Origin: a virus
Taxonomy: Duplodnaviria > Heunggongvirae > Uroviricota > Caudoviricetes
Strand: one strand, 5' to 3'
Virus record (IMG/VR): IMGVR_UViG_3300043410_001642
Span: 105,120-141,368 of that record
DNA: 36,249 bases
Part shown: piece after piece, positions 5,622 to 34,971 of the stretch
How the letters are laid out: each line of letters opens with the position of its first letter
How positions within the stretch are numbered: position 1 is the first letter of the stretch
Program-made: the position numbers and the translations under genes
Notes under the pieces: model-generated
The model's input: only the letters and a program-made list of their open reading frames with translations
Told to the model about the DNA's origin: nothing
Databases searched by the model: none

Positions 5622-5653
5622 TTTGGAAATGTGAGCACTTTTTCGTATATTTG
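5622..5653 (+). promoter_or_regulatory. Bacteroidota-type promoter for the Prs/Nampt/NDT operon
   Basis: TTTGG 5622-5626, TATATTTG 5646-5653. Confidence 0.8.
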
Positions 5654-5672: not shown

Positions 5673-6551
5673 ATGCAGATATTAAATCTAACAAACTTTG
5701 AAGAATCTAACATTAAGTTCTTCATAAATCAATTCCCCGATGGGCAACAATCTATTACCATTGATTTCAAATCGGACATTACCTTAAAGCTAGATAAAAC
5801 AATTCGTATAAAATCCAGAATGAATTCATTTAAGGATGTTGAATTGATTATTTGTGCTAATCAATCTCTGAAAGATTTGGGAGTTGAGAATGTAGAATTA
5901 TATGTTCCCTATTTTTTAGGAGGTAGAAGTGATAGAAGATTTCTAGCCGGTCAAACTAACTATCTTAAGAATGTTATTTGCCCGATTATTAATTCACAAG
6001 GATTCTCAAAAGTTTATGTAGTGGATCCTCATAGTGATGTGTTGGAAGCGTGTTTGAATAACTTTAATAAATTTACTAATAATAGTATAGTTGAATATAC
6101 ATTGGATAAACTTAATGGTCGTTCCTCTCAAACTATGTTAGTATCTCCCGATGCCGGTGCATTAAAAAAGATTTATGATATTGCTAAAGATTTCAATATC
6201 AAAAATGTAGTAACTGCATCAAAGGTTAGAGATATTGAAAGTGGTAATATTGTTAGAACCGAATTACCAACGATGGATTTAACTGATATAGAACAAATTA
6301 TTATTATTGATGATATATGTGATGGAGGTAGAACCTTTATTGAATTGGCTAAAGTAATTAAAGAACAAACGGATAAGCCGATTTATTTGGTTGTTACTCA
6401 TGGTATATTCAGTGGAGGATTTGAAAAGTTAAGTGATGTATTAGATGGTATCTTCTGCACGAATAGTATTAAAAATATTGACTTTGATATTGTTAAAGTT
6501 CAATCAAGACAAAATAGTTCAGATTTCGTAAAACAATTAAATATATTCTAA
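5673..6551 (+). CDS. prs: Ribose-phosphate pyrophosphokinase homolog (candidate NARP1 Adps)
   Basis: FPDGQ, YVPYFLGGRSDRRF, VDPHS, VSPDAGA, PRT motif IIIIDDICDGGRTF. Confidence 0.88.
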   Translation: MQILNLTNFEESNIKFFINQFPDGQQSITIDFKSDITLKLDKTIRIKSRMNSFKDVELIICANQSLKDLGVENVELYVPYFLGGRSDRRFLAGQTNYLKNVICPIINSQGFSKVYVVDPHSDVLEACLNNFNKFTNNSIVEYTLDKLNGRSSQTMLVSPDAGALKKIYDIAKDFNIKNVVTASKVRDIESGNIVRTELPTMDLTDIEQIIIIDDICDGGRTFIELAKVIKEQTDKPIYLVVTHGIFSGGFEKLSDVLDGIFCTNSIKNIDFDIVKVQSRQNSSDFVKQLNIF

Positions 6552-18936: not shown

Positions 18937-19178
18937 TGAAAAGGAAAAAAGACAAATGGGTTCAGCCCGAATGGGATTGCCACAATAAAACCTACGATGT
19001 AGTAGAGAGTGAGTTGGCAAATTGGATATTGATTAAGCAAGAGAACCTACCTCTACATATTATCACCGGAAACTCAAAGGAAATGAAAAAGAGAGTTGTG
19101 AGTATAATAGAGAGTATAGGATTCGAATGGATGGAGAGTATTACCAATAGTGGTATGATAATAGTAACGAATGGCTAA
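18936..19178 (+). CDS. Hypothetical protein
   Basis: ORF track 80 aa; possibly Smr-like (HIITGNS) but weak. Confidence 0.6.
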   Translation: MKRKKDKWVQPEWDCHNKTYDVVESELANWILIKQENLPLHIITGNSKEMKKRVVSIIESIGFEWMESITNSGMIIVTNG

Positions 19179-19464
19179 GAAATTAACAATAAAAGGTTGG
19201 AAGAAGATAGAAGACTATTGGGATAGTAGAGAAGATGGAGGTTGGATTGCCGTAGAGACGGATACACAATATACTCTAATAGGAAAAAAGATGTCCATTA
19301 TCATTCATAGGATAATGAGAAAGGATGGTCTTTGGAACACCGATTTTGTAGTAAATGGGGATACGAAGAGGTTAGAACTACCAAAATCCGCATTTGGGTT
19401 AGAGAACCTATACCAATTATGGGATGGGGAAATAGATGCAATGATGATAAACCGAAACATATGA
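19171..19464 (+). CDS. LxI(E/K)N-family small domain, dispersed copy
   Basis: LTIKGWKKI start, IIIHR mid-motif. Confidence 0.6.
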   Translation: MAKKLTIKGWKKIEDYWDSREDGGWIAVETDTQYTLIGKKMSIIIHRIMRKDGLWNTDFVVNGDTKRLELPKSAFGLENLYQLWDGEIDAMMINRNI

Positions 19465-20222: not shown

Positions 20223-20717
20223 ATGGATAGTAGAGAACTTAGGGAAATGAGTATTCGGAATGCGAAGATGGCATTGGAGCAAGCGAAGTGGAATAACGAA
20301 GCACACTTAACCCAATTGTATTATGATATGGTCTTAAAGGGAATAGACCCGACAAAGACCCGTAGAAGTGAAATAGTTGCGGAAACAAAAAATAATTCAG
20401 TGAAAAGACTTATTATAGAAGACCCTACTAAATTAAATAATATACATATAGAGTATGAAGGAAGGAATCTATTAGATAGTATGGATAACTACAGTTGGAA
20501 GGTAGTATTAGATAATAAGGTATGGAGAGTAATACTATATAGAGACTGGATAGATGGAGAGAGTGTAGAGGGAGAAGTACATCATAGAAGTAGAATAGAT
20601 AACTTAAGTGAATCACTAAGTAGAGAGGTATGGGTAGATAGAAGGATAGTAAAAGGAAGAGAAGGTTTTATAGAGTGGGTATATAAGAATACACTACATT
20701 ATGATAGAGTTAGATAA
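20223..20717 (+). CDS. Protein with C-terminal LxI(E/K)N-family domain
   Basis: LIIEDPTKL...VILYR...GFIEWV. Confidence 0.6.
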   Translation: MDSRELREMSIRNAKMALEQAKWNNEAHLTQLYYDMVLKGIDPTKTRRSEIVAETKNNSVKRLIIEDPTKLNNIHIEYEGRNLLDSMDNYSWKVVLDNKVWRVILYRDWIDGESVEGEVHHRSRIDNLSESLSREVWVDRRIVKGREGFIEWVYKNTLHYDRVR

Positions 20718-24931: not shown

Positions 24932-25018
24932 AGGGTGGGTAAGTAGGAAACATCTTCAATTGCAGTTCTATTCTCTCTTTTACTCTTTTATTACAATAAA
25001 GTTTCTTACATTATACCT
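24932..25018 (+). ncRNA. Candidate antisense/3'UTR RNA element
   Basis: GTAAG..GGAAAC pairs with GTTTCTTAC, closing a pyrimidine-rich loop complementary to early leaders. Confidence 0.45.
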
Positions 25019-25050
25019 AACGGAGGTTGAGAAGACAGCCTCCGTTTTTC
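25019..25050 (+). terminator. Intrinsic terminator
   Basis: AACGGAGGTTG-agaaga-CAGCCTCCGTT plus T run. Confidence 0.85.
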
Positions 25051-26771: not shown

Positions 26772-26954
26772 ATGAGTAATGTAACAATTGAGGTATTAGA
26801 GAGAGTGGAGGCCGAGAGGGCAGAAACTATGTCTAAGGCCGAATTCGTAAAATGGATGGCAGAGTTAAATGTGGGTAGACTGTATGAAGACCCTACCGGC
26901 AGATTAAAAGCAAGAGAGATTATGAGTGAGTATGTATTCAAAAAGAGGGGTTAG
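26772..26954 (+). CDS. Hypothetical protein; probable paralog of 33901..34086
   Basis: EFVKWMAELNV..YEDP versus EFNNWCKAVGV..YNDP. Confidence 0.6.
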   Translation: MSNVTIEVLERVEAERAETMSKAEFVKWMAELNVGRLYEDPTGRLKAREIMSEYVFKKRG

Positions 26955-26984
26955 GTTTTATGTAAACGCTAAATGCTTTTTGGT

Positions 26985-27050
26985 GGTGAGAGGGCGTGGG
27001 GGTGACAAATATATTTGGGTTGATCTTTCCCACATACGGAAAAAATATAT
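26985..27050. other. G-tract plus CACATACGGAAAAAA intergenic element
   Basis: GAGAGGGCGTGGGGGTG...CCCACATACGGAAAAAATAT; CACATACGGA also at 21291-21300. Confidence 0.5.
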
Positions 27051-27083
27051 ATTATCCCTCCAAAGGGAAATAAAAAACACTAT

Positions 27084-27401
27084 ATGGTTATGAAACTGAA
27101 GATAGAGAACTTAGATAAGATGGATGGGATGGAAAGAGGAAAGTATGAAGTAGATATTACTGTAGAGACATTAGATTCATATCGTTTCTATATTAGAGAT
27201 AATGAAATTAGAAGAGGATTCCAAATAGATTTGATGAAGGAAAGCAGAGAGGGAGGATTGATTTGGGAACTAAGATATTCTCCAACAAAGATAAAGGGAG
27301 TATCATGGGGTACTATCAGTAATATGAACCTATTACTATCAGATATAGCACATTTGATTTCAGTATATAGAAAACCTTTACCACATAAGAATAAACCATA
27401 A
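27084..27401 (+). CDS. LxI(E/K)N-family paralog 1
   Basis: MKLKIENLDKM. Confidence 0.75.
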   Translation: MVMKLKIENLDKMDGMERGKYEVDITVETLDSYRFYIRDNEIRRGFQIDLMKESREGGLIWELRYSPTKIKGVSWGTISNMNLLLSDIAHLISVYRKPLPHKNKP

Positions 27402-27429
27402 AATTTCTGGCAAAAAAAATTTACTACAT

Positions 27430-27780
27430 ATGAGATTAAACATAACACAAACGGCTAACATCCAAATGGAGGATTGGGATGCATACGATAGAACATACTA
27501 CGATGGGGATATTACAACATCAAATGAGGATTGGAAGTTGGATTGGTATCTATACTTCTTAAGACCTAAAGAGGGAGGATATAATAAGACGGTCGGTATT
27601 GCGATTCACCGAAACCCTTCACCACTAACTATGAAGGTTGAGGTTTGTTTTCCCGTTCGGATTTTGAGTGGGACGATGGATAATATAATCTATAAAGAGG
27701 ATGTATCTCTATCTACACTAAAGGATGGAGAACTATTTTGGGAGAGGGTAAATGATTATTTAAATGAAAATGTAAAGTAA
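27430..27780 (+). CDS. LxI(E/K)N-family paralog 2 (divergent)
   Basis: MRLNIT, IAIHR, SLSTLKDGELFWERV. Confidence 0.65.
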   Translation: MRLNITQTANIQMEDWDAYDRTYYDGDITTSNEDWKLDWYLYFLRPKEGGYNKTVGIAIHRNPSPLTMKVEVCFPVRILSGTMDNIIYKEDVSLSTLKDGELFWERVNDYLNENVK

Positions 27781-28085
27781 TGAAATGGCTAAATATAAAA
27801 GGGATTGAGAAGGTATCGGGGCGGACGGCACATTGGTTGTGGTTGGTAGGGTTTGTGGAAACTACGGAGAATCACTACATCCTTAAGATATGGAGGGGAA
27901 GTGAACACAAATACATCTATATAGAAAGGAAGAAATGGGGTGATGGTTATAGAATGTTTTTAGAGAGATGGGATGAAACATATGAGGGAGAACTTTACTT
28001 TTGGGAAGCGGATATTCAAAGACCCGAAGGACTCTTATTGATAACATCGGAATTAATAGATAATTGTGATAATGATAACGATTGA
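27780..28085 (+). CDS. LxI(E/K)N-family paralog 3
   Basis: LNIKGIEKVSG, IYIERK..GDGY. Confidence 0.75.
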   Translation: MKWLNIKGIEKVSGRTAHWLWLVGFVETTENHYILKIWRGSEHKYIYIERKKWGDGYRMFLERWDETYEGELYFWEADIQRPEGLLLITSELIDNCDNDND

Positions 28086-28359
28086 GAACTTAGATAAGAT
28101 TGTTGGCTCTCCGTTTAGAGTTGGGGAGATAGAGTATGAATTCTATTCGTTTAATGATTATCCTGGCCGTTATCAATATTGGTTTTGGATTAGGAATCAA
28201 AGGACGGGGAGAGAATCTCGCCTCACATTAGATAGAAGGGATTTAACCCTTAGTATGGATAAGATGGCGGGGCAACTCTTTCTTCTTAATGAGGAGAGTG
28301 TAAGGAGTTTCTCTTCTTTTGTAGAAGCAGTAGAAAGAATATTAAATTATCACACTTAG
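28066..28359 (+). CDS. LxI(E/K)N-family paralog 4
   Basis: ITIENLDKIVG, LTLDR. Confidence 0.75.
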   Translation: MIMITIENLDKIVGSPFRVGEIEYEFYSFNDYPGRYQYWFWIRNQRTGRESRLTLDRRDLTLSMDKMAGQLFLLNEESVRSFSSFVEAVERILNYHT

Positions 28360-28361
28360 AT

Positions 28362-28694
28362 ATGTTAAAAATAAAAGAATATGATAAGATAGTAGGTGAA
28401 TCCTTTCGTATAGATAAGGGATTAGGGAAGGGTTCACCCACTTTATATTCTATAATAGAAAGAATAGATGAGCATAAAAACTTCTATGATTTCATTATTA
28501 GGGATGTAGAAACGGGTTATACGGCAGTAGTCGGTCTTCATCGCCATTCTAAAGACAAATTTAAGGGTGAACGAACATATGATTTACTTTGGAATGGAAT
28601 AGATAGTAGGGTTTCGGTTACGGCGGGTTACATTAGTGATAAGAATAAAATGATTGAATCGATAAAAAGTGTGATAGATGATAATTGGTTTTAA
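28362..28694 (+). CDS. LxI(E/K)N-family paralog 5
   Basis: MLKIKEYDKIVG, VGLHR. Confidence 0.75.
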   Translation: MLKIKEYDKIVGESFRIDKGLGKGSPTLYSIIERIDEHKNFYDFIIRDVETGYTAVVGLHRHSKDKFKGERTYDLLWNGIDSRVSVTAGYISDKNKMIESIKSVIDDNWF

Positions 28695-28719
28695 TATGAA
28701 AAAATTAAATAGATAGTAT

Positions 28720-29118
28720 ATGTTAAAAATAAATGGTACGGATAAAATGGTCGGTAAATCCATCACTCTCTACAATCCAAAGGGAGTTATTCCTTCAGAT
28801 TGGAATTGGTGGGTATGTGATAGAGTAATAGAGTATCCTGGCCAATTTGATTCTGCCTACCCTATGGAAGAGGCTTATCGTTTTGAATTCTCTTCTACTG
28901 ATAAAGAAAATGATTTACCTCTATGTATCTACCTTTATAGAGAGGAGAGAGAAGGGGGTAGGTATTTAATGCAGAATAACCTTATGGATGGTGATTGGTT
29001 TTCCACAAAGGGAGAGATGAGTGATATGGGAGTTTTCACATCCGCTCTTACTATGTATTCCACCAAAGTTATCATTGATTGGTTAGTAGATAATGGAACA
29101 ATAGAAAACCCTTATTAA
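28720..29118 (+). CDS. LxI(E/K)N-family paralog 6
   Basis: MLKINGTDKMVG, IYLYR. Confidence 0.75.
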   Translation: MLKINGTDKMVGKSITLYNPKGVIPSDWNWWVCDRVIEYPGQFDSAYPMEEAYRFEFSSTDKENDLPLCIYLYREEREGGRYLMQNNLMDGDWFSTKGEMSDMGVFTSALTMYSTKVIIDWLVDNGTIENPY

Positions 29119-29121
29119 TCT

Positions 29122-29454
29122 ATGCTAACCATTGAGAATATAGAAAGATTATTACAAAAAAGAATTTGCGACCCGAATGGCAAACCCGAATACTATGTAA
29201 AAAATATTCGTGAGTTAAAAGACCATTATCATATTATCTTGCGTTGTATGGGTGGGTGGAGAAGTGATGAGATATTGATATTGTTGAGAGAAAAAGAAGT
29301 GGGTAACTCCCAACCAATTTGTAATGGTTGTTATGCTCTATATGATAATAGCAATCCACAAAACCGAGTTTATTTGCCAACCGCCGATATAAGGGATATG
29401 ATAAACTTTGTTGGTTCAATACAATTTTTAATGCAAAAAGATTTAGTATGCTAA
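29122..29454 (+). CDS. LxI(E/K)N-family paralog 7
   Basis: MLTIENIERLL. Confidence 0.75.
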   Translation: MLTIENIERLLQKRICDPNGKPEYYVKNIRELKDHYHIILRCMGGWRSDEILILLREKEVGNSQPICNGCYALYDNSNPQNRVYLPTADIRDMINFVGSIQFLMQKDLVC

Positions 29455-29753
29455 CGATTGAGAATATAGAAAAGTTGATGGGGTATCCAATTGTCATAAA
29501 GGGTTATCCTTTCCGAATCCAAACCGTCATCACCCATCCAAACGAATATCTAATTGGAATAGAAAATGATGTGAGAGTAACGGCTCATGCTCCGATAACC
29601 GTCATATTAAGTAGAGTGGATGTGAATGGGATGTATAGATTACAAAAGGCAAAAGGATATTATGATTATATAGAATTGTATATGGAGGAAATGGAAACCC
29701 GTAGTGAGTTTGTAAGTAGATTAATGATGTATCTAAATAGTATAGGGGTTTAG
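29448..29753 (+). CDS. LxI(E/K)N-family paralog 8
   Basis: MLTIENIEKLMG, VILSR. Confidence 0.75.
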   Translation: MLTIENIEKLMGYPIVIKGYPFRIQTVITHPNEYLIGIENDVRVTAHAPITVILSRVDVNGMYRLQKAKGYYDYIELYMEEMETRSEFVSRLMMYLNSIGV

Positions 29754-29809
29754 GACTCAAAACATTTAATCTATCAAAAAATTTTAGTGACGGGACAAAT
29801 TAAACACTT

Positions 29810-30133
29810 ATGTTGAATATAGAAAATTATTTACGAATCGTTGGAATGACACTTAGTCTGAAGAATGGAGAATGGAAGATTACCGATGCGAGAAAATCCG
29901 TTGATGGATTCCATTACATCATTGAGAGATTTAAATCCAATGGTAAGATTGATTATTGCACCCGCTTTTCAATTCGTAGGATGGGAAGGATGGTGTTGGG
30001 TGAAGAAACTACATACTATGATATTCTATTTGAATATAATATGTTTGGGAGATTAAGTATGGAACAATTGGTAAATCCGAATGCCTTTGTTGATGTTATA
30101 TGTGATAAAATAAGATGGATACCGCAATGCTAA
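29810..30133 (+). CDS. LxI(E/K)N-family paralog 9
   Basis: MLNIENYLRIVG, FSIRR. Confidence 0.75.
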   Translation: MLNIENYLRIVGMTLSLKNGEWKITDARKSVDGFHYIIERFKSNGKIDYCTRFSIRRMGRMVLGEETTYYDILFEYNMFGRLSMEQLVNPNAFVDVICDKIRWIPQC

Positions 30134-30438
30134 CAATTAAGAACATAGAAAAAATATTAAACACCCGATATGGTAGGGTTGATGAGCATTTTGATGAGTG
30201 GGAACTTATTAATATAAACGATATGAGTGAAACGGAATATGTTTTTCATTTCAGAAGAGAATATAAGGATAGGGGCAATCTTGTCCAAAGGAGGCAGATT
30301 ACAATGAATAGAGTTGGGAAGTTTCATACCCATGTGATGGAAAAAGTATATGAATGTGGGGGTGGATTATTTACAATGGGGTATTTGGAAAATAAGGATA
30401 ATATGAAACGAATATTTGAAGACCGATTAAACCATTAG
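30127..30438 (+). CDS. LxI(E/K)N-family paralog 10 (start corrected from 30115)
   Basis: MLTIKNIEKIL, ITMNR. Confidence 0.75.
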   Translation: MLTIKNIEKILNTRYGRVDEHFDEWELININDMSETEYVFHFRREYKDRGNLVQRRQITMNRVGKFHTHVMEKVYECGGGLFTMGYLENKDNMKRIFEDRLNH

Positions 30439-30439
30439 T

Positions 30440-30754
30440 ATGTTAGTAATAAAAAACTTCATAAGTATAGAAGGCCAAGAGTTTGAATTGACTGGTGGTA
30501 GAAGGTTCTTAATTGGTATTGCTAAAGATGAGGGTTTACACTATACCTTTGGAGTGTTTCCCCTAATAAACAATATAGCAAGTATCAAAGATGCTATTGT
30601 ATATAAATTGAATAAGGCTTTATTGAATAGGAGGGGATATGTATTGACATCGACATCAATGAAACACGATGTTTATGTAAAGCCGGCAAATTTGACACTA
30701 AGGAATTTTATATTGGAACTACACATACAAACCGCAAAGATATGCTCACAATAA
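30440..30754 (+). CDS. LxI(E/K)N-family paralog 11
   Basis: MLVIKNFISIEG. Confidence 0.75.
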   Translation: MLVIKNFISIEGQEFELTGGRRFLIGIAKDEGLHYTFGVFPLINNIASIKDAIVYKLNKALLNRRGYVLTSTSMKHDVYVKPANLTLRNFILELHIQTAKICSQ

Positions 30755-30777
30755 AAAATATTTGGAATATTCAATAA
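30742..30777 (+). pseudogene. 11-codon stub of a 12th paralog
   Basis: ATGCTCACAATAAAAAATATT = MLTIKNI, then promoter sequence and TAA. Confidence 0.55.
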
Positions 30778-30792
30778 TTTTTCGTATATTTG
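30761..30792 (+). promoter_or_regulatory. Bacteroidota-type promoter in an AT hairpin
   Basis: TTTGG 30761-30765, TATATTTG 30785-30792. Confidence 0.8.
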
Positions 30793-30816: not shown

Positions 30817-31095
30817 ATGAAAAAAGTATTAGGATTGATGATTGGAGGGATAACATTAATGACCCTTTTATATGGCTGCACTGAAAACAATAGAGCAAGA
30901 GTTTGGGGTGGAACGGAAACCATTCAATTAGAATCAGGTGTTCGTTTAGTAAATGTAACTTGGAAAGGAGATAAGGGTTCAACCTCTTTATGGGTGCTAA
31001 CTAAAAAAGATACAACTAAACCATCAACCTATTCATTCAAAGAGAAATCTAGCTTTGGGGTAATGGAAGGTGAAGTAATCATTATAGAAAAATAA
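30817..31095 (+). CDS. Small lipoprotein
   Basis: Signal peptide with LYGC lipobox. Confidence 0.75.
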   Translation: MKKVLGLMIGGITLMTLLYGCTENNRARVWGGTETIQLESGVRLVNVTWKGDKGSTSLWVLTKKDTTKPSTYSFKEKSSFGVMEGEVIIIEK

Positions 31096-31485: not shown

Positions 31486-31785
31486 ATGAAACATAGAATC
31501 ATTGAGGCAACTTATATGGATGATTATGGTAATCGGAATCATAAAGTATATCACGTACAAACAAAGAAGAGTTTCTTATCCTTTCCATATTGGAAGTATG
31601 AAACCCGTTTAGAGTGTGGGTATGGTGATTGTTATGATGTAAGGTTAGAATTCAAAACATATGGTGAAGCTCTTAAGTTCATAAAGGATAACCTATGTGG
31701 TAAAGATTTCAAACCAGGATGGAGTTACAAAGTAATGAGAGAAGTTGATTGTAATCCTAATCCAACATACCCAGACACATTATAG
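31486..31785 (+). CDS. Hypothetical protein
   Basis: ORF track 99 aa. Confidence 0.7.
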   Translation: MKHRIIEATYMDDYGNRNHKVYHVQTKKSFLSFPYWKYETRLECGYGDCYDVRLEFKTYGEALKFIKDNLCGKDFKPGWSYKVMREVDCNPNPTYPDTL

Positions 31786-31786
31786 T

Positions 31787-32995
31787 ATGAGTAATATAAA
31801 AACATTAGATTTAGATTCTACCGAAGAATTATCAAGTGAGCAAATCCGAATATTAAAGGAAGAACATTTCCGTTATTCAGGTAATAGTAGTAACCCTCCA
31901 TTAAGTGGGCAACCATATCGTTTGGTTGATGTTGAATCTTTTCCTCACGCACATTATGTTTTGACCACCACTGGCAATCCAATCAATAAAGTGTTTGAAG
32001 TTTCTCAAAATGTATATGAGATAGATGTAACTTCTATAATGAGTATCATAGACGATTTTAGTTTTGAAGAAATCCATAAAAGAGATTATTATGGTTCGGA
32101 TTATCATTCAACATCTAAAATATTTGAGAAAAGAGATAGAGATGGGGTAACACTTTTGACGATATATAATATATTCAATGATTGGGCTAAAGGAAGTAAG
32201 AGCAAATATCATGAAGGAATCAACATTGCTATTCATTCAAATGGTAATAATGTTACATACAAAGAAATTACGGAGAAGATAATAAATGCTTGCAAACGAA
32301 AAGTTCTCAAATCAAACAACATTGCATTAGTAATCCAAACACAAAGAGGATATGAAACTCAAACATTTGAATTACCAAAGCAGAAGTTGGATATTGAATT
32401 AAACTATGGTAAGGATTTCAAACCTATTCACGAAAAAATCATTGGGCAATTAAACAAACAAAAGAGTAAAGGATTGGTTTTATTACACGGAACTCCTGGT
32501 ACTGGAAAAACTCACTACTTAAAATATCTTGCTTCAAAGATTAAAGATAAGAGAGTTCTATTCATTCCACCTTACTTAGCAGATTTCATTACATCTCCAC
32601 AAATGACTCCGTTCTTAATTGAGAATGCTAATTCAGTGTTATTCATTGAAGATGCGGAAAATGTTATTACGGATAGAACATCAAATGGTTCTACCGGTGT
32701 ATCAAACATTCTTAACTTAACTGATGGTATCCTAAGTGATATTCTTAATATTCAAATTGTCGCAACATTTAATATGGATAAGAAGAAGATTGATACTGCC
32801 TTACTAAGAAAAGGTAGATTGATTGCCGAACATAAATTTGAAGCACTACCTTTAGATGATACTAAAGCATTACTTAAACATTTAGGAAAAGATGTGGAAG
32901 TAAAAAATGGAATGACACTAACCGAAATCTACAACATAGATGAAACGGAATATAAATCAGAAGAAAAATATTCACCAATAGGTTTTAATAGATAA
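31787..32995 (+). CDS. AAA+ ATPase, BCS1-like (start corrected from 31745)
   Basis: LLHGTPGTGKT, LFIEDAE, LNLTDG, ATFN, IDTALLRKGR. Confidence 0.9.
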   Translation: MSNIKTLDLDSTEELSSEQIRILKEEHFRYSGNSSNPPLSGQPYRLVDVESFPHAHYVLTTTGNPINKVFEVSQNVYEIDVTSIMSIIDDFSFEEIHKRDYYGSDYHSTSKIFEKRDRDGVTLLTIYNIFNDWAKGSKSKYHEGINIAIHSNGNNVTYKEITEKIINACKRKVLKSNNIALVIQTQRGYETQTFELPKQKLDIELNYGKDFKPIHEKIIGQLNKQKSKGLVLLHGTPGTGKTHYLKYLASKIKDKRVLFIPPYLADFITSPQMTPFLIENANSVLFIEDAENVITDRTSNGSTGVSNILNLTDGILSDILNIQIVATFNMDKKKIDTALLRKGRLIAEHKFEALPLDDTKALLKHLGKDVEVKNGMTLTEIYNIDETEYKSEEKYSPIGFNR

Positions 32996-32998
32996 TAT

Positions 32999-33529
32999 AT
33001 GCCACATATACCAATGCCACCACCACTACAAAGAGATGCTTATTATGGAAATTATAGTGGTGGTTCTATTCAATTACCACCACCTCCACCTAAAACTAAA
33101 ACTTTGAAACCATTAACAATATCAAATTATGAAAGGTTAGAACACAACGAAACTCCTTTGGGATGGGTTTGTAGAGTATCACTTGAGCAACCGGATTCAT
33201 ATCGTTTCTTATTTGATAAAATTATGTGGAGTAAAACGGGCAAAGATTTTAAGTGTTCCGTTGAAATGAAGTTGGATAGAGATGGAGTTATGTTATATGA
33301 CCCACAAACATTTAATTCAGATGTGTATCATACGGTCTATGTAATGAATGATGATAACATATGGGTAAGGTTGGGTAAGATTAGTAAAACTGATATTGGA
33401 TATAAAAATATATTCTTAGTTAGAATGGAAAAGATATGTGAAGAGTATAAAGAAATTGTATTAAAGAGCATATATGATTCATTACCCTGGTATAAAAAGT
33501 TAATATATAAAACCCTTAAGATAAAATAA
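32999..33529 (+). CDS. Pro-rich N-terminus fused to LxI(E/K)N-family domain
   Basis: PMPPP...PPPPP then LTISNYERL...MKLDR. Confidence 0.65.
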   Translation: MPHIPMPPPLQRDAYYGNYSGGSIQLPPPPPKTKTLKPLTISNYERLEHNETPLGWVCRVSLEQPDSYRFLFDKIMWSKTGKDFKCSVEMKLDRDGVMLYDPQTFNSDVYHTVYVMNDDNIWVRLGKISKTDIGYKNIFLVRMEKICEEYKEIVLKSIYDSLPWYKKLIYKTLKIK

Positions 33530-33858
33530 TGAAAGGATATTATTGTATATACGAATGTTCAAAGAATGAATGGTTGTATGAAGGGGTGATGTGGGTGAAG
33601 GATAGGGATTATCATTCACGAACAATTGGAACAAAGCATGCAATTCAAATAAGTCAAGGATATAACTACAATCCAAATTTACCACAAATAGAAGTGATAG
33701 ATACTGAACATGAAATACTATTAACTCCTGGTAGTCAAAAAGTAGATCCAAATCAGTTAATGAAATTTGAAACAATGAATGAAGCTGAAGATTATCTATT
33801 AAAAACATTTTCATCTACAAATGGGCAATTTTATTCAATTCGTAAAATTTACTTCTAA
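33529..33858 (+). CDS. Hypothetical protein
   Basis: ORF track 109 aa. Confidence 0.7.
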   Translation: MKGYYCIYECSKNEWLYEGVMWVKDRDYHSRTIGTKHAIQISQGYNYNPNLPQIEVIDTEHEILLTPGSQKVDPNQLMKFETMNEAEDYLLKTFSSTNGQFYSIRKIYF

Positions 33859-33864
33859 ACTATA

Positions 33865-33896
33865 TTTGGAAAATCCAATAATTTTTCGTATATTTG
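33865..33896 (+). promoter_or_regulatory. Promoter in a hairpin, near-leaderless start
   Basis: TTTGG-aaaat-CCAATA; TATATTTG 33889-33896; ATG 4 nt later. Confidence 0.8.
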
Positions 33897-33900
33897 TTTT

Positions 33901-34086
33901 ATGACAGAATTTAATAATTGGTGTAAGGCGGTGGGAGTATCAACCTTATGCGACTACAATGACCCAAAGATTCTCCGTTGGATTGATAGAATTCAGGCAG
34001 CGAAATCAGTTGAGTTAGTGAATTATCAAAAGAAGTTTTCCGCAACAAACGGAATGATTAAAGAAAATGTAAAATATAAAATCTAA
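33901..34086 (+). CDS. Hypothetical protein
   Basis: ORF track 61 aa. Confidence 0.65.
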   Translation: MTEFNNWCKAVGVSTLCDYNDPKILRWIDRIQAAKSVELVNYQKKFSATNGMIKENVKYKI

Positions 34087-34550
34087 TGGGAGAAAAACAT
34101 ATAGAGGAGTTGTTTAATAAAATGGGATTGGATTACAATTCAATATATGATAAATATGGTCAAAGTATTGCATGGGAAGATATGATTAAAGAAATTGCCG
34201 TATTATTAAACGATGATAAGATTAAAGCTTCTCCTCACTACTTAGTTATTCAAAACTATTCAAAGTTATTGGGTAAATACATATTAGCAGATTCAACTGA
34301 TTATCAAATCACTCAAGTAGAAGAGAATGTTAGAACTTATGATATAGAAGGATTATATAATTCTCAAATGTTTAAGATTTATATTGAAAGAAGCTTTGAT
34401 GAAGGTTGGAATGGATACTTAATCACTTTTGAAGCAGGATTGATAAAAGATAGAAGGCATGTTAGTAAAAAATCTTTAGCTTCTCCATCTGATTTCACAA
34501 CACTTATAGAAACATTTATTACTAATAATTTAATTTCATTACCTTTTTAA
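34086..34550 (+). CDS. Protein with C-terminal LxI(E/K)N-family domain
   Basis: LVIQNYSKLLG...IYIER...SDFTTLI. Confidence 0.65.
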   Translation: MGEKHIEELFNKMGLDYNSIYDKYGQSIAWEDMIKEIAVLLNDDKIKASPHYLVIQNYSKLLGKYILADSTDYQITQVEENVRTYDIEGLYNSQMFKIYIERSFDEGWNGYLITFEAGLIKDRRHVSKKSLASPSDFTTLIETFITNNLISLPF

Positions 34551-34552
34551 TT

Positions 34553-34720
34553 ATGGAAACATTAACAATTGGAGATTTACAAAGTATTGAACTAATTTTA
34601 ACCGAAGCATCAGCTTGGGGATTGAGAGTAGAAGTAGAAGAAACTGCTCAAAAGTATATTGATGAAGGAACTCCGGCAGTTGAAGCATATGAATGGGCAT
34701 ATGGTGATTGGATTAAATAA
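34553..34720 (+). CDS. 55-aa acidic hypothetical protein
   Basis: METLTIGDLQSIELIL...; below track cutoff. Confidence 0.6.
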   Translation: METLTIGDLQSIELILTEASAWGLRVEVEETAQKYIDEGTPAVEAYEWAYGDWIK

Positions 34721-34731
34721 TATTTATTAGT

Positions 34732-34971
34732 ATGAAAATAACTCAACAGCAATTAAACGAAGAGGTTAATCAAACCTTAATTCCATACTTAATGGATTCG
34801 GATATTGCACTTAAGGAAATCATCAAACTCGTTCATTTATATGCAACCGAAAGATTGAATGATTATGAGTGGCAAGAGAACGATAGAGTTATGGGTATTA
34901 TTAAAGATGAAGTTGATAAATTATTACATCCATCATTTGAAGACCGCTTCGGTCCAATATGCTTAAACTAA
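34732..34971 (+). CDS. Hypothetical protein
   Basis: ORF track 79 aa. Confidence 0.65.
   Translation: MKITQQQLNEEVNQTLIPYLMDSDIALKEIIKLVHLYATERLNDYEWQENDRVMGIIKDEVDKLLHPSFEDRFGPICLN

Follow-up and report, generated by a model that had tools for sequence, protein, structure and literature searches.

An undescribed family of small proteins in a tandem array of diverged genes, a candidate binding repertoire of an uncultured large phage

Lineage-specific expansions of small orphan proteins are a familiar phenomenon in large and jumbo phages, where many diverged tandem copies of a small protein without assigned function occupy an accessory region. Comparable layouts have been described in other settings, as bacteria possess homogeneous polyimmunity loci, tandem arrays of diverged immunity genes (PMC3482391), related immunity superfamilies have been recruited by DNA viruses (PMC3113570), and the hyperplastic regions of T4-type phages contain non-coding early promoter and stem-loop cassettes (PeSLs) located between unrelated genes (PMC2839356, PMC4122927). 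The array of 11 genes considered here resides in a stretch of 36,249 nucleotides (nt), the window, which spans positions 105,120 to 141,368 of the Caudoviricetes record IMGVR_UViG_3300043410_001642 of IMG/VR. Its products constitute what appears, judged from sequence, to be an undescribed protein family of about 100 residues, met only in metagenome and viral contigs and termed the MLTIKN family. That a large phage may expand a family of small orphan proteins is already known; the family itself is undescribed in the libraries searched. The array differs from the known expansions in that a different, undescribed family is involved and in that other phages possess counterparts of each array copy, which places the expansion before the lineage. 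The window forms the final 36 kb of a linear viral record of 141,368 bp with 32% G+C and a CheckV completeness of 74%, which derives from an uncultured large phage with hosts of Bacteroidota type. Nearly every gene of the window is carried by the + strand, and the other products include GroEL, NAMPT, PRPP synthase, an RNA ligase and a UvdE-type endonuclease. Coordinates are window positions unless marked as genome positions. The additions made here are the conserved array leader, the reordering of genes in another phage, a codon-level test of the gene starts, an independent second structural model and a fused family member beside an AAA ATPase.

The array (27084-30754, + strand) consists of 11 head-to-tail, co-directional open reading frames (ORFs) of 95-132 codons each (Table 1), with an intergenic spacing of, in order, 28, -1, -14, 2, 25, 3, -7, 56, -7 and 1 nt. 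As BLAST comparisons between the copies are weak and mostly non-significant, the top pair having 32% identity over 74 residues, profiles were needed to establish kinship. Leave-one-out hidden Markov models (HMMs), scored against all 662 ORFs of the genome, recover the omitted copy at E<1e-3 in eight of 11 cases, with the remaining three at E 0.06-0.3. An external-only profile, built without any window protein from 96 proteins of other metagenomes (profile length 105), matches 11 of 11 array copies end to end with E values from 2e-21 to 1.4e-4, covering profile positions from 1-2 to 97-101. The original prediction of 11 highly diverged tandem paralogs of one domain of about 100 residues is thus borne out by a profile to which the window did not contribute. 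The motif by which membership can be recognized (N-terminal L-T-I-x-N-h-x-K-h-x-G, Y34, L54-x-R56, Y63 and F88/L92/L96) is present, with the N-terminal element absent in the copy at 27430. The isoelectric point across the window copies ranges from 4.4 to 9.6.

The family extends far beyond this phage. When a family profile made from the window copies was searched against 1.84 billion protein cluster representatives, at least 113 representatives were retrieved at E<1e-3, and the relationship, for which such a database search had been proposed as a check, is significant at the profile level. The metagenome members have nearly all about 100 residues, match the whole profile and begin with M-L-T-I-x-N; those looked up originate solely from ENA, JGI and Logan metagenomes, and the only name attached to them is 'hypothetical protein'. 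The domain had been called unrecognised and, indeed, Pfam and PHROGs, scanned with the single copies and with the 102 members of the family alignment that was also used for folding and entropy calculation, give scattered single matches only; at E<0.01, no Pfam family, the SUKH and Imm families included, has a match to more than a single one of the 102 members. Equally, the profile finds nothing below E 0.14 among the PDB sequences, and neither tblastn with one central member nor blastn with the array DNA gives a match in 50,697 GenBank phage records, while a word-index homolog search yields nine matches only. A DNA probe of the conserved gene start, the start box discussed below, has two chance matches without the domain in 185,579 species genomes, which, as the probe is narrow, is weak evidence for absence from bacteria.

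Structure prediction provides a second line of kinship. Copy 8 (29448), modelled by AlphaFold2 with the 102-row family alignment, reaches a mean predicted local distance difference test (pLDDT) of 90.6 and a predicted template modelling score (pTM) of 0.82, with a short helix (residues 7-10) that leads into six strands, after which the chain ends in a short helix and the long C-terminal one. Copy 5 (28362), modelled by AlphaFold2 from a different alignment, of 14 rows and restricted to its subfamily, has a pLDDT of 86.6 and the identical order of elements. The predicted common fold is a short N-terminal helix, an antiparallel meander of 6-7 strands and, lying against this sheet, a C-terminal helix, and the proposed comparison of models thus gives one fold for two copies from independent alignments. 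In fact, the two models retrieve the same weak structural neighbours, which likewise indicates that they share a fold. The best neighbour of both, over the identical chain range, is 5mu3_D, an RWD domain of Ctf19/Mcm21 (Z 6.6 with a root-mean-square deviation of 2.5 over 75 aligned residues for model 1, and Z 5.6 for model 2), followed by 4g6t_A (Z 6.3 for model 1, with a second figure of Z 5.2 for model 2), all to be read against the search tool's background of Z 7-8. Further weak neighbours of both models are Mediator subunits and, at Z 4.1-6.3, numerous class I type III secretion chaperones. RWD domains and class I secretion chaperones such as SycH, SchA and Spa15 resemble the models as small alpha/beta domains with a C-terminal helix over an antiparallel sheet; however, the scores (Z 5.2-6.6) lie within the chance range, sequence similarity is absent and no RWD-type motif is conserved. 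Foldseek returns nothing at E<=1e-3 from PDB or BFVD (best E >= 0.09), and since in addition all Z scores are under the background, no structural family is assigned.

The conservation pattern within this predicted fold is sharply divided. Low-entropy columns among the 102 rows comprise the N-terminal element (L2, T3, I4, N6, K9, I10 and G12), alternating strand positions (W22, I24 and V27; Y34, F36 and I38; I52, L54 and R56; Y63 and L65; V77) and the helix (I82, F88, L92 and L96), with G61 also conserved in the central motif (I52 L54 R56 G61 Y63). Between these columns, the entropy is 3.5-4 bits, which is near maximal. The three spaced motifs noticed originally, N-terminal, central and C-terminal, correspond to the conserved columns of the family alignment, and the proposal of one scaffold with diversified surfaces holds, as conservation is confined to core hydrophobics and the N-terminal motif. 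The family thus combines a fixed scaffold of buried hydrophobics, strand periodicity and N-terminal motif with a freely varying surface.

Arrays of the family, with six to at least 16 genes in a row, also occur in related uncultured phages, with copy numbers which, as they derive from metagenome contigs, are lower bounds. In L016, 14 consecutive copies lie behind a leader with 75% identity to window positions 26977-27075 and are followed by counterparts of the lipoprotein gene (75%) and the AAA ATPase gene located downstream of the window array. L018, the end of a 149.5-kb contig with a UvdE 79% identical to that of the window, has 19 copies, 16 of them consecutive, before the contig end cuts the array. 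The short contigs L007, L008 and L020 have six, six and seven copies, respectively, and other related or large-phage records 0-2. L001-L006, found via the ATPase, and L017, found via the lipoprotein, have nearly no other gene of the region in common with the window. Assemblies often break inside the arrays, as in L018, and many members are located on very short contigs of 0.6-3 kb; such breaks suggest either strain-level variation or repeat-induced interruption of the assembly.

For each of the window copies, the nearest relative is found in a different phage (24-67% identity) and not among its paralogs (<=32%); the duplications are therefore ancient, and the copies represent separately conserved subfamilies. 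Decaying duplicates are thereby ruled out. The original prediction had drawn an analogy with the gene accordions of large DNA viruses, and this analogy has to be abandoned. Poxvirus-type accordions likewise repeat in tandem a gene with a presumed action on the host; however, accordions are recent, near-identical and unstable, whereas the array copies, with their low identity, are kept as separate subfamilies. Compared with L016, family counterparts are 40-49% identical and the flanking genes 62-75%; compared with L018, family counterparts are 29-41% identical and UvdE 79%. As the counterparts are more diverged than the flanks in the same phage pair, these comparisons point to a faster evolution of the family genes.

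The DNA at the gene starts offers a view on how such a repertoire might be turned over. DNA repeats between array copies are confined to the first 25-45 nt of the genes, the stretches 29121-29146 and 29447-29472 being 96% identical. At 29448 and 30127, the two -7 overlaps, the TAA of the start ATGCTAA is the stop codon of the upstream gene, which can be read directly and confirms what had been noted before. Recombination at gene starts had also been proposed and is supported by the restriction of the repeats to this site and by the gene order of L020, where a 28066-like gene is followed by a 27084-like and a 28362-like gene, while in the window 27084 comes first and 28066 and 28362 are adjacent; the breakpoints fall at gene boundaries. 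Furthermore, the DNA homology of the 28066-type gene continues past its stop codon into the start box of the next gene, whichever gene follows. Among family genes of all loci, the second codon, for leucine, is CTA in 26 of 46 (57%), compared with 12% at other leucine positions of those genes (Fisher p 7e-11), an out-of-frame stop is present at bases 5-7 in 42 of the 46 start heptamers, and the -7 overlap is seen at seven junctions. The start box is thus constrained at the nucleotide level beyond the protein requirement.

Whole genes would be gained, lost and reordered via recombination at the 25-45-nt start box common to all genes, a role as recombination site that is supported by the breakpoints, and the out-of-frame stop of the box (ATG-YTA-A...) could terminate any gene placed upstream and so would guarantee termination of the upstream frame. 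The start box is notable in itself, as it seems to combine coding with two further roles, those of a recombination site and of a universal upstream stop. PeSL shuffling (PMC2839356, PMC4122927) is similar in that short conserved gene-border sequences coincide with insertion, deletion and reordering of entire small genes among related T4-type phages. The box of the array, in contrast to PeSLs, is the coding start (ATG-CTA-AC..., the first 8-15 codons) of homologous genes, which are separated by 0-3 nt at the majority of junctions.

The most likely reading of the array is a repertoire of small intracellular binding proteins with diverse partners, most plausibly host proteins, a reading for and against which we see about equal chances. 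Each subfamily would recognize a different partner, whereby host proteins would be taken over or defence or toxin proteins be blocked during infection. This reading is proposed because the proteins are soluble single domains without enzyme motifs, with a fixed core, a variable surface and varied charge, and because many old subfamilies are under selection in a plastic accessory region with large copy-number differences between related phages. We infer that the variable surface is what binds the diverse partners and that these are host proteins. A long contest with host proteins would be expected to leave such a design, in which the scaffold is invariant and the surface free, old subfamilies number in the dozens and single genes are turned over at a built-in recombination box, and if the partners were defence systems, the family would be a ready catalogue of inhibitors for a phylum with poorly known phage defence. 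Large uncultured phages of freshwater Bacteroidota give 3-10% of some genome regions to this family without name, structure or cultured representative.

Several observations weigh against a binding repertoire. No significant match to a known anti-defence, immunity or host-takeover family is found in Pfam and PHROGs, and a search for longer fused forms finds none and no fusion to a domain of known function, which is weak evidence by the tool's own rating. The near-invariant polar residues N6, K9, R56, Y34 and Y63 could constitute one shared ligand or partner site, and the variable surface can also be explained by relaxed constraint where function needs only the core. A homodimer prediction, with a score of 0.00, has no bearing on binding either way.

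A special case of the binding repertoire, and no true alternative to it, is a phage 'polyimmunity' locus, in which each copy would inhibit one toxin or nuclease effector family of host abortive-infection systems, toxin-antitoxin systems or competitors' toxins. The tandem layout, in which the paralogs of a small cytoplasmic binding domain are old, diverged and conserved separately, is indeed that of homogeneous polyimmunity loci (PMC3482391), and the recruitment of related immunity superfamilies by DNA viruses (PMC3113570) counts in its favour. However, the array has no sequence relation to SUKH or the Imm families of Pfam, no toxin gene is recognized among the scanned neighbours, the narrow start-box probe detected none of the family in bacterial genomes, and the array resides on a lytic-type phage genome, and we regard this special case as rather unlikely. 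The conserved N-terminus, the best conserved part of the proteins, might alternatively be regarded as a capsid-targeting tag, a shared dodecapeptide as in the capsid-packaged internal proteins of T4-type phages, with the cargo injected with the DNA against host defences like T4 IPI*. The loci of these internal proteins are hyperplastic in T4-type phages, and T4 IPI, IPII and IPIII are equally small proteins with a conserved N-terminus and a variable body at a plastic locus. In the array proteins, though, the models build the motif into the fold (residues 1-10 at pLDDT 80-81), it is internal to the chain in the fused proteins 32999, 34086 and P0014, the bodies are homologous as well and not unrelated cargo, 10 of the 11 tandem copies lack an L/I-x-E site for the prohead protease within residues 1-25, no such site is conserved among the 102 members, and no copy has the ES[VI]NE linker of this phage, which renders packaging as internal proteins improbable.

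The proximity of the AAA+ unfoldase gene (31745-32995) raises the question whether the proteins are its substrate adaptors or cofactors, with the invariant N-terminal patch docking and the variable surface selecting the client. The similarity of the ATPase to Afg2, Cdc48, Rpt and Bcs1, the family member 32999 that begins directly behind its stop codon, an AAA gene downstream of the L016 array and another, in L014, about 7 kb upstream of a copy, and the presence of some invariant polar residues are in agreement with such a role. Relatives that keep the ATPase (44-57%), on the other hand, have 0-2 copies, one record of 313 kb, rated 80% complete, has none, and gene neighbourhood is the sole link, so that adaptors seem very improbable. 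A client-adaptor library in particular, in which a patch of N6, K9, R56, Y34 and Y63 would dock on the Cdc48/Rpt-like unfoldase and the surfaces would deliver host proteins for unfolding or removal, we hold to be likewise very improbable; were it true, bacterial viruses would have an equivalent of the F-box, BTB and ankyrin adaptors that form expanded families in large eukaryotic viruses. Finally, the copies might combine as paralogous subunits into a single hetero-oligomer, or they might act as dimeric chaperones that bind unfolded peptides of their partners in the manner of class I type III secretion chaperones, as SchA, Spa15, ExsC, SycH, SicP, InvB and SpcS are among the weak neighbours with 72-84 residues aligned. 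In class I secretion chaperones, the third strand is separated from the fourth by a middle helix, while the models predict a loop or strand at this position; moreover, all Z scores are below the tool's informative level of 8, with RWD and Mediator domains equal or better, and a copy number from 0 to more than 19 among related phages fits a fixed assembly poorly, so that neither form has more than a very slight chance of being correct.

Table 1. Coordinates of the array copies, further family members and neighbouring features (E values of the external-only profile and of the leave-one-out HMMs; percentages are identities)
Feature	Position	Strand	Length	Matches and remarks
Array leader	26955..27083	+		non-coding; 75% identical over 100 nt to region before 14-gene array of L016
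Copy 1	27084..27401	+	105 aa	external-only E 1.1e-12, full length; leave-one-out E 1.6e-5; counterparts 63% (L020), 40% (L016)
Copy 2	27430..27780	+	116 aa	external-only E 1.4e-4, residues 3-115; leave-one-out only E 0.3; hhalign P 4.7e-5, residues 37-114
Copy 3	27780..28085	+	101 aa	external-only E 3.2e-10; leave-one-out E 0.061; counterpart P0108 32%
Copy 4	28072..28359	+	95 aa from ATG 28072	alternative start GTG 28066; external-only E 6e-15; leave-one-out E 1.9e-7; counterpart 65% (L020)
Copy 5	28362..28694	+	110 aa	external-only E 2.2e-21; counterparts 67% (L020), 49% (L016)
Copy 6	28720..29118	+	132 aa	insertions and C-terminal extension; external-only E 2.8e-16; leave-one-out E 9e-4
Copy 7	29122..29454	+	110 aa	external-only E 1.4e-20; stop within ATGCTAA of copy 8
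Copy 8	29448..29753	+	101 aa	external-only E 1e-20; counterparts 41-43% (L018, L007)
Copy 9	29810..30133	+	107 aa	external-only E 7e-13; leave-one-out E 1.8e-6; stop within ATGCTAA of copy 10
Copy 10	30127..30438	+	103 aa from ATG 30127	ORF open from 30115; external-only E 5.6e-12; leave-one-out E 3e-4
Copy 11, last gene of array	30440..30754	+	104 aa	external-only E 4e-9; leave-one-out E 0.27; counterpart P0075/L021 53%
Possible diverged copy	19171..19464	+	97 aa	only residues 1-37 align; hhalign P 3e-4; HMM E 0.17
Probable diverged fused copy	20223..20717	+	164 aa	helical N-terminal leader; putative domain residues 60-153 (nt 20400-20681)
Fused copy	32999..33529	+	176 aa	proline-rich N-terminus; domain residues 39-152 (nt 33113-33454); short C-terminal tail; external-only E 3.3e-10; counterparts P0005 94%, P0013 56%
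Fused copy	34086..34550	+	154 aa	52-residue N-terminal extension; domain residues 53-148 (nt 34242-34529); external-only E 5.3e-13; profile of 11 tandem copies alone E 4e-6; counterpart P0069 60%
Predicted small lipoprotein	30817-31095			signal peptide and Cys lipobox; directly after array
AAA ATPase, classic clade	31745-32995			best PDB relatives Afg2, Cdc48, Rpt, Bcs1; unassigned N-terminal part of ~190 residues

Within the array, the copy at 27430 is the most diverged and the one without the canonical N-terminal motif. Four dispersed copies had been claimed outside it, and these fare differently (Table 1). Those at 34086 and 32999, the latter starting 4 nt after the ATPase stop codon, are recovered by the external-only profile. 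The ORF at 20223 is unmatched by HMMER with this profile and is nevertheless called a probable member because its leader is shared with domain-bearing proteins, the first 26-29 residues being 55-65% identical to P0014, P0036 and P0088, each with a clear domain behind the leader, and because residues 60-153 are colinear in hhalign (P 0.004, probability 8.7%). The ORF at 19171 matches over its first 37 residues only and may be regarded as no more than a possible diverged copy. The leader M-D-S-x-x-L-R-x-M-S-x-x-N-A-K-x-A-L-x-Q-A-K of about 30 residues (window 20223-20400, P0014, P0036 and P0088) precedes the domain in several phages, and proteins bearing it appear to form a distinct fused subfamily. 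At genome positions 100902-101327, 3.8-4.2 kb before the window start, an ORF of 141 residues with a weak full-length profile match (E 1e-3, positions 3-96) may be an additional diverged copy.

A TATATTTG box is located in the leader in front of the array (27010-27017), and a small hairpin follows at about 27050-27072, although the fold is no better than that of shuffled sequences. The box matches the -7 element of a recurring promoter-like consensus, TTTGGAA, about 14 nt, TTTTTCG and TATATTTG, located 20-100 nt upstream of gene starts, of which the upstream half matches more poorly in the leader. Sites of the consensus on the + strand are found at 5646, 8520, 11184, 13276, 30785 and 33889, before the genes at 5673, 8549, 11291, 13281, 30817 and 33901, respectively, and TATATTTG occurs 33 times in the 141-kb genome. 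No consensus site is present inside the array, the next full site after the last copy being that at 30785, which as a pattern match only fits one transcription unit with translational coupling. A 55-codon GTG ORF overlapping the leader (26926-27093) is probably no gene; this stretch is conserved as DNA with L016 in G-rich and A/T-rich blocks and in a small hairpin with a changed but kept stem. A neighbouring small RNA (24932-25050) was compared with the array leader, and no complementarity was found in the leader.

Downstream of the array, the lipoprotein is 70-75% identical in L016 and L017 and far better conserved than its neighbours, and the AAA ATPase is the only gene of the region common to six more distant phages, with 44-57% identity. 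Outside the window, at genome positions 33745-34938, an ORF of 397 residues carries four ES[VI]NE motifs.

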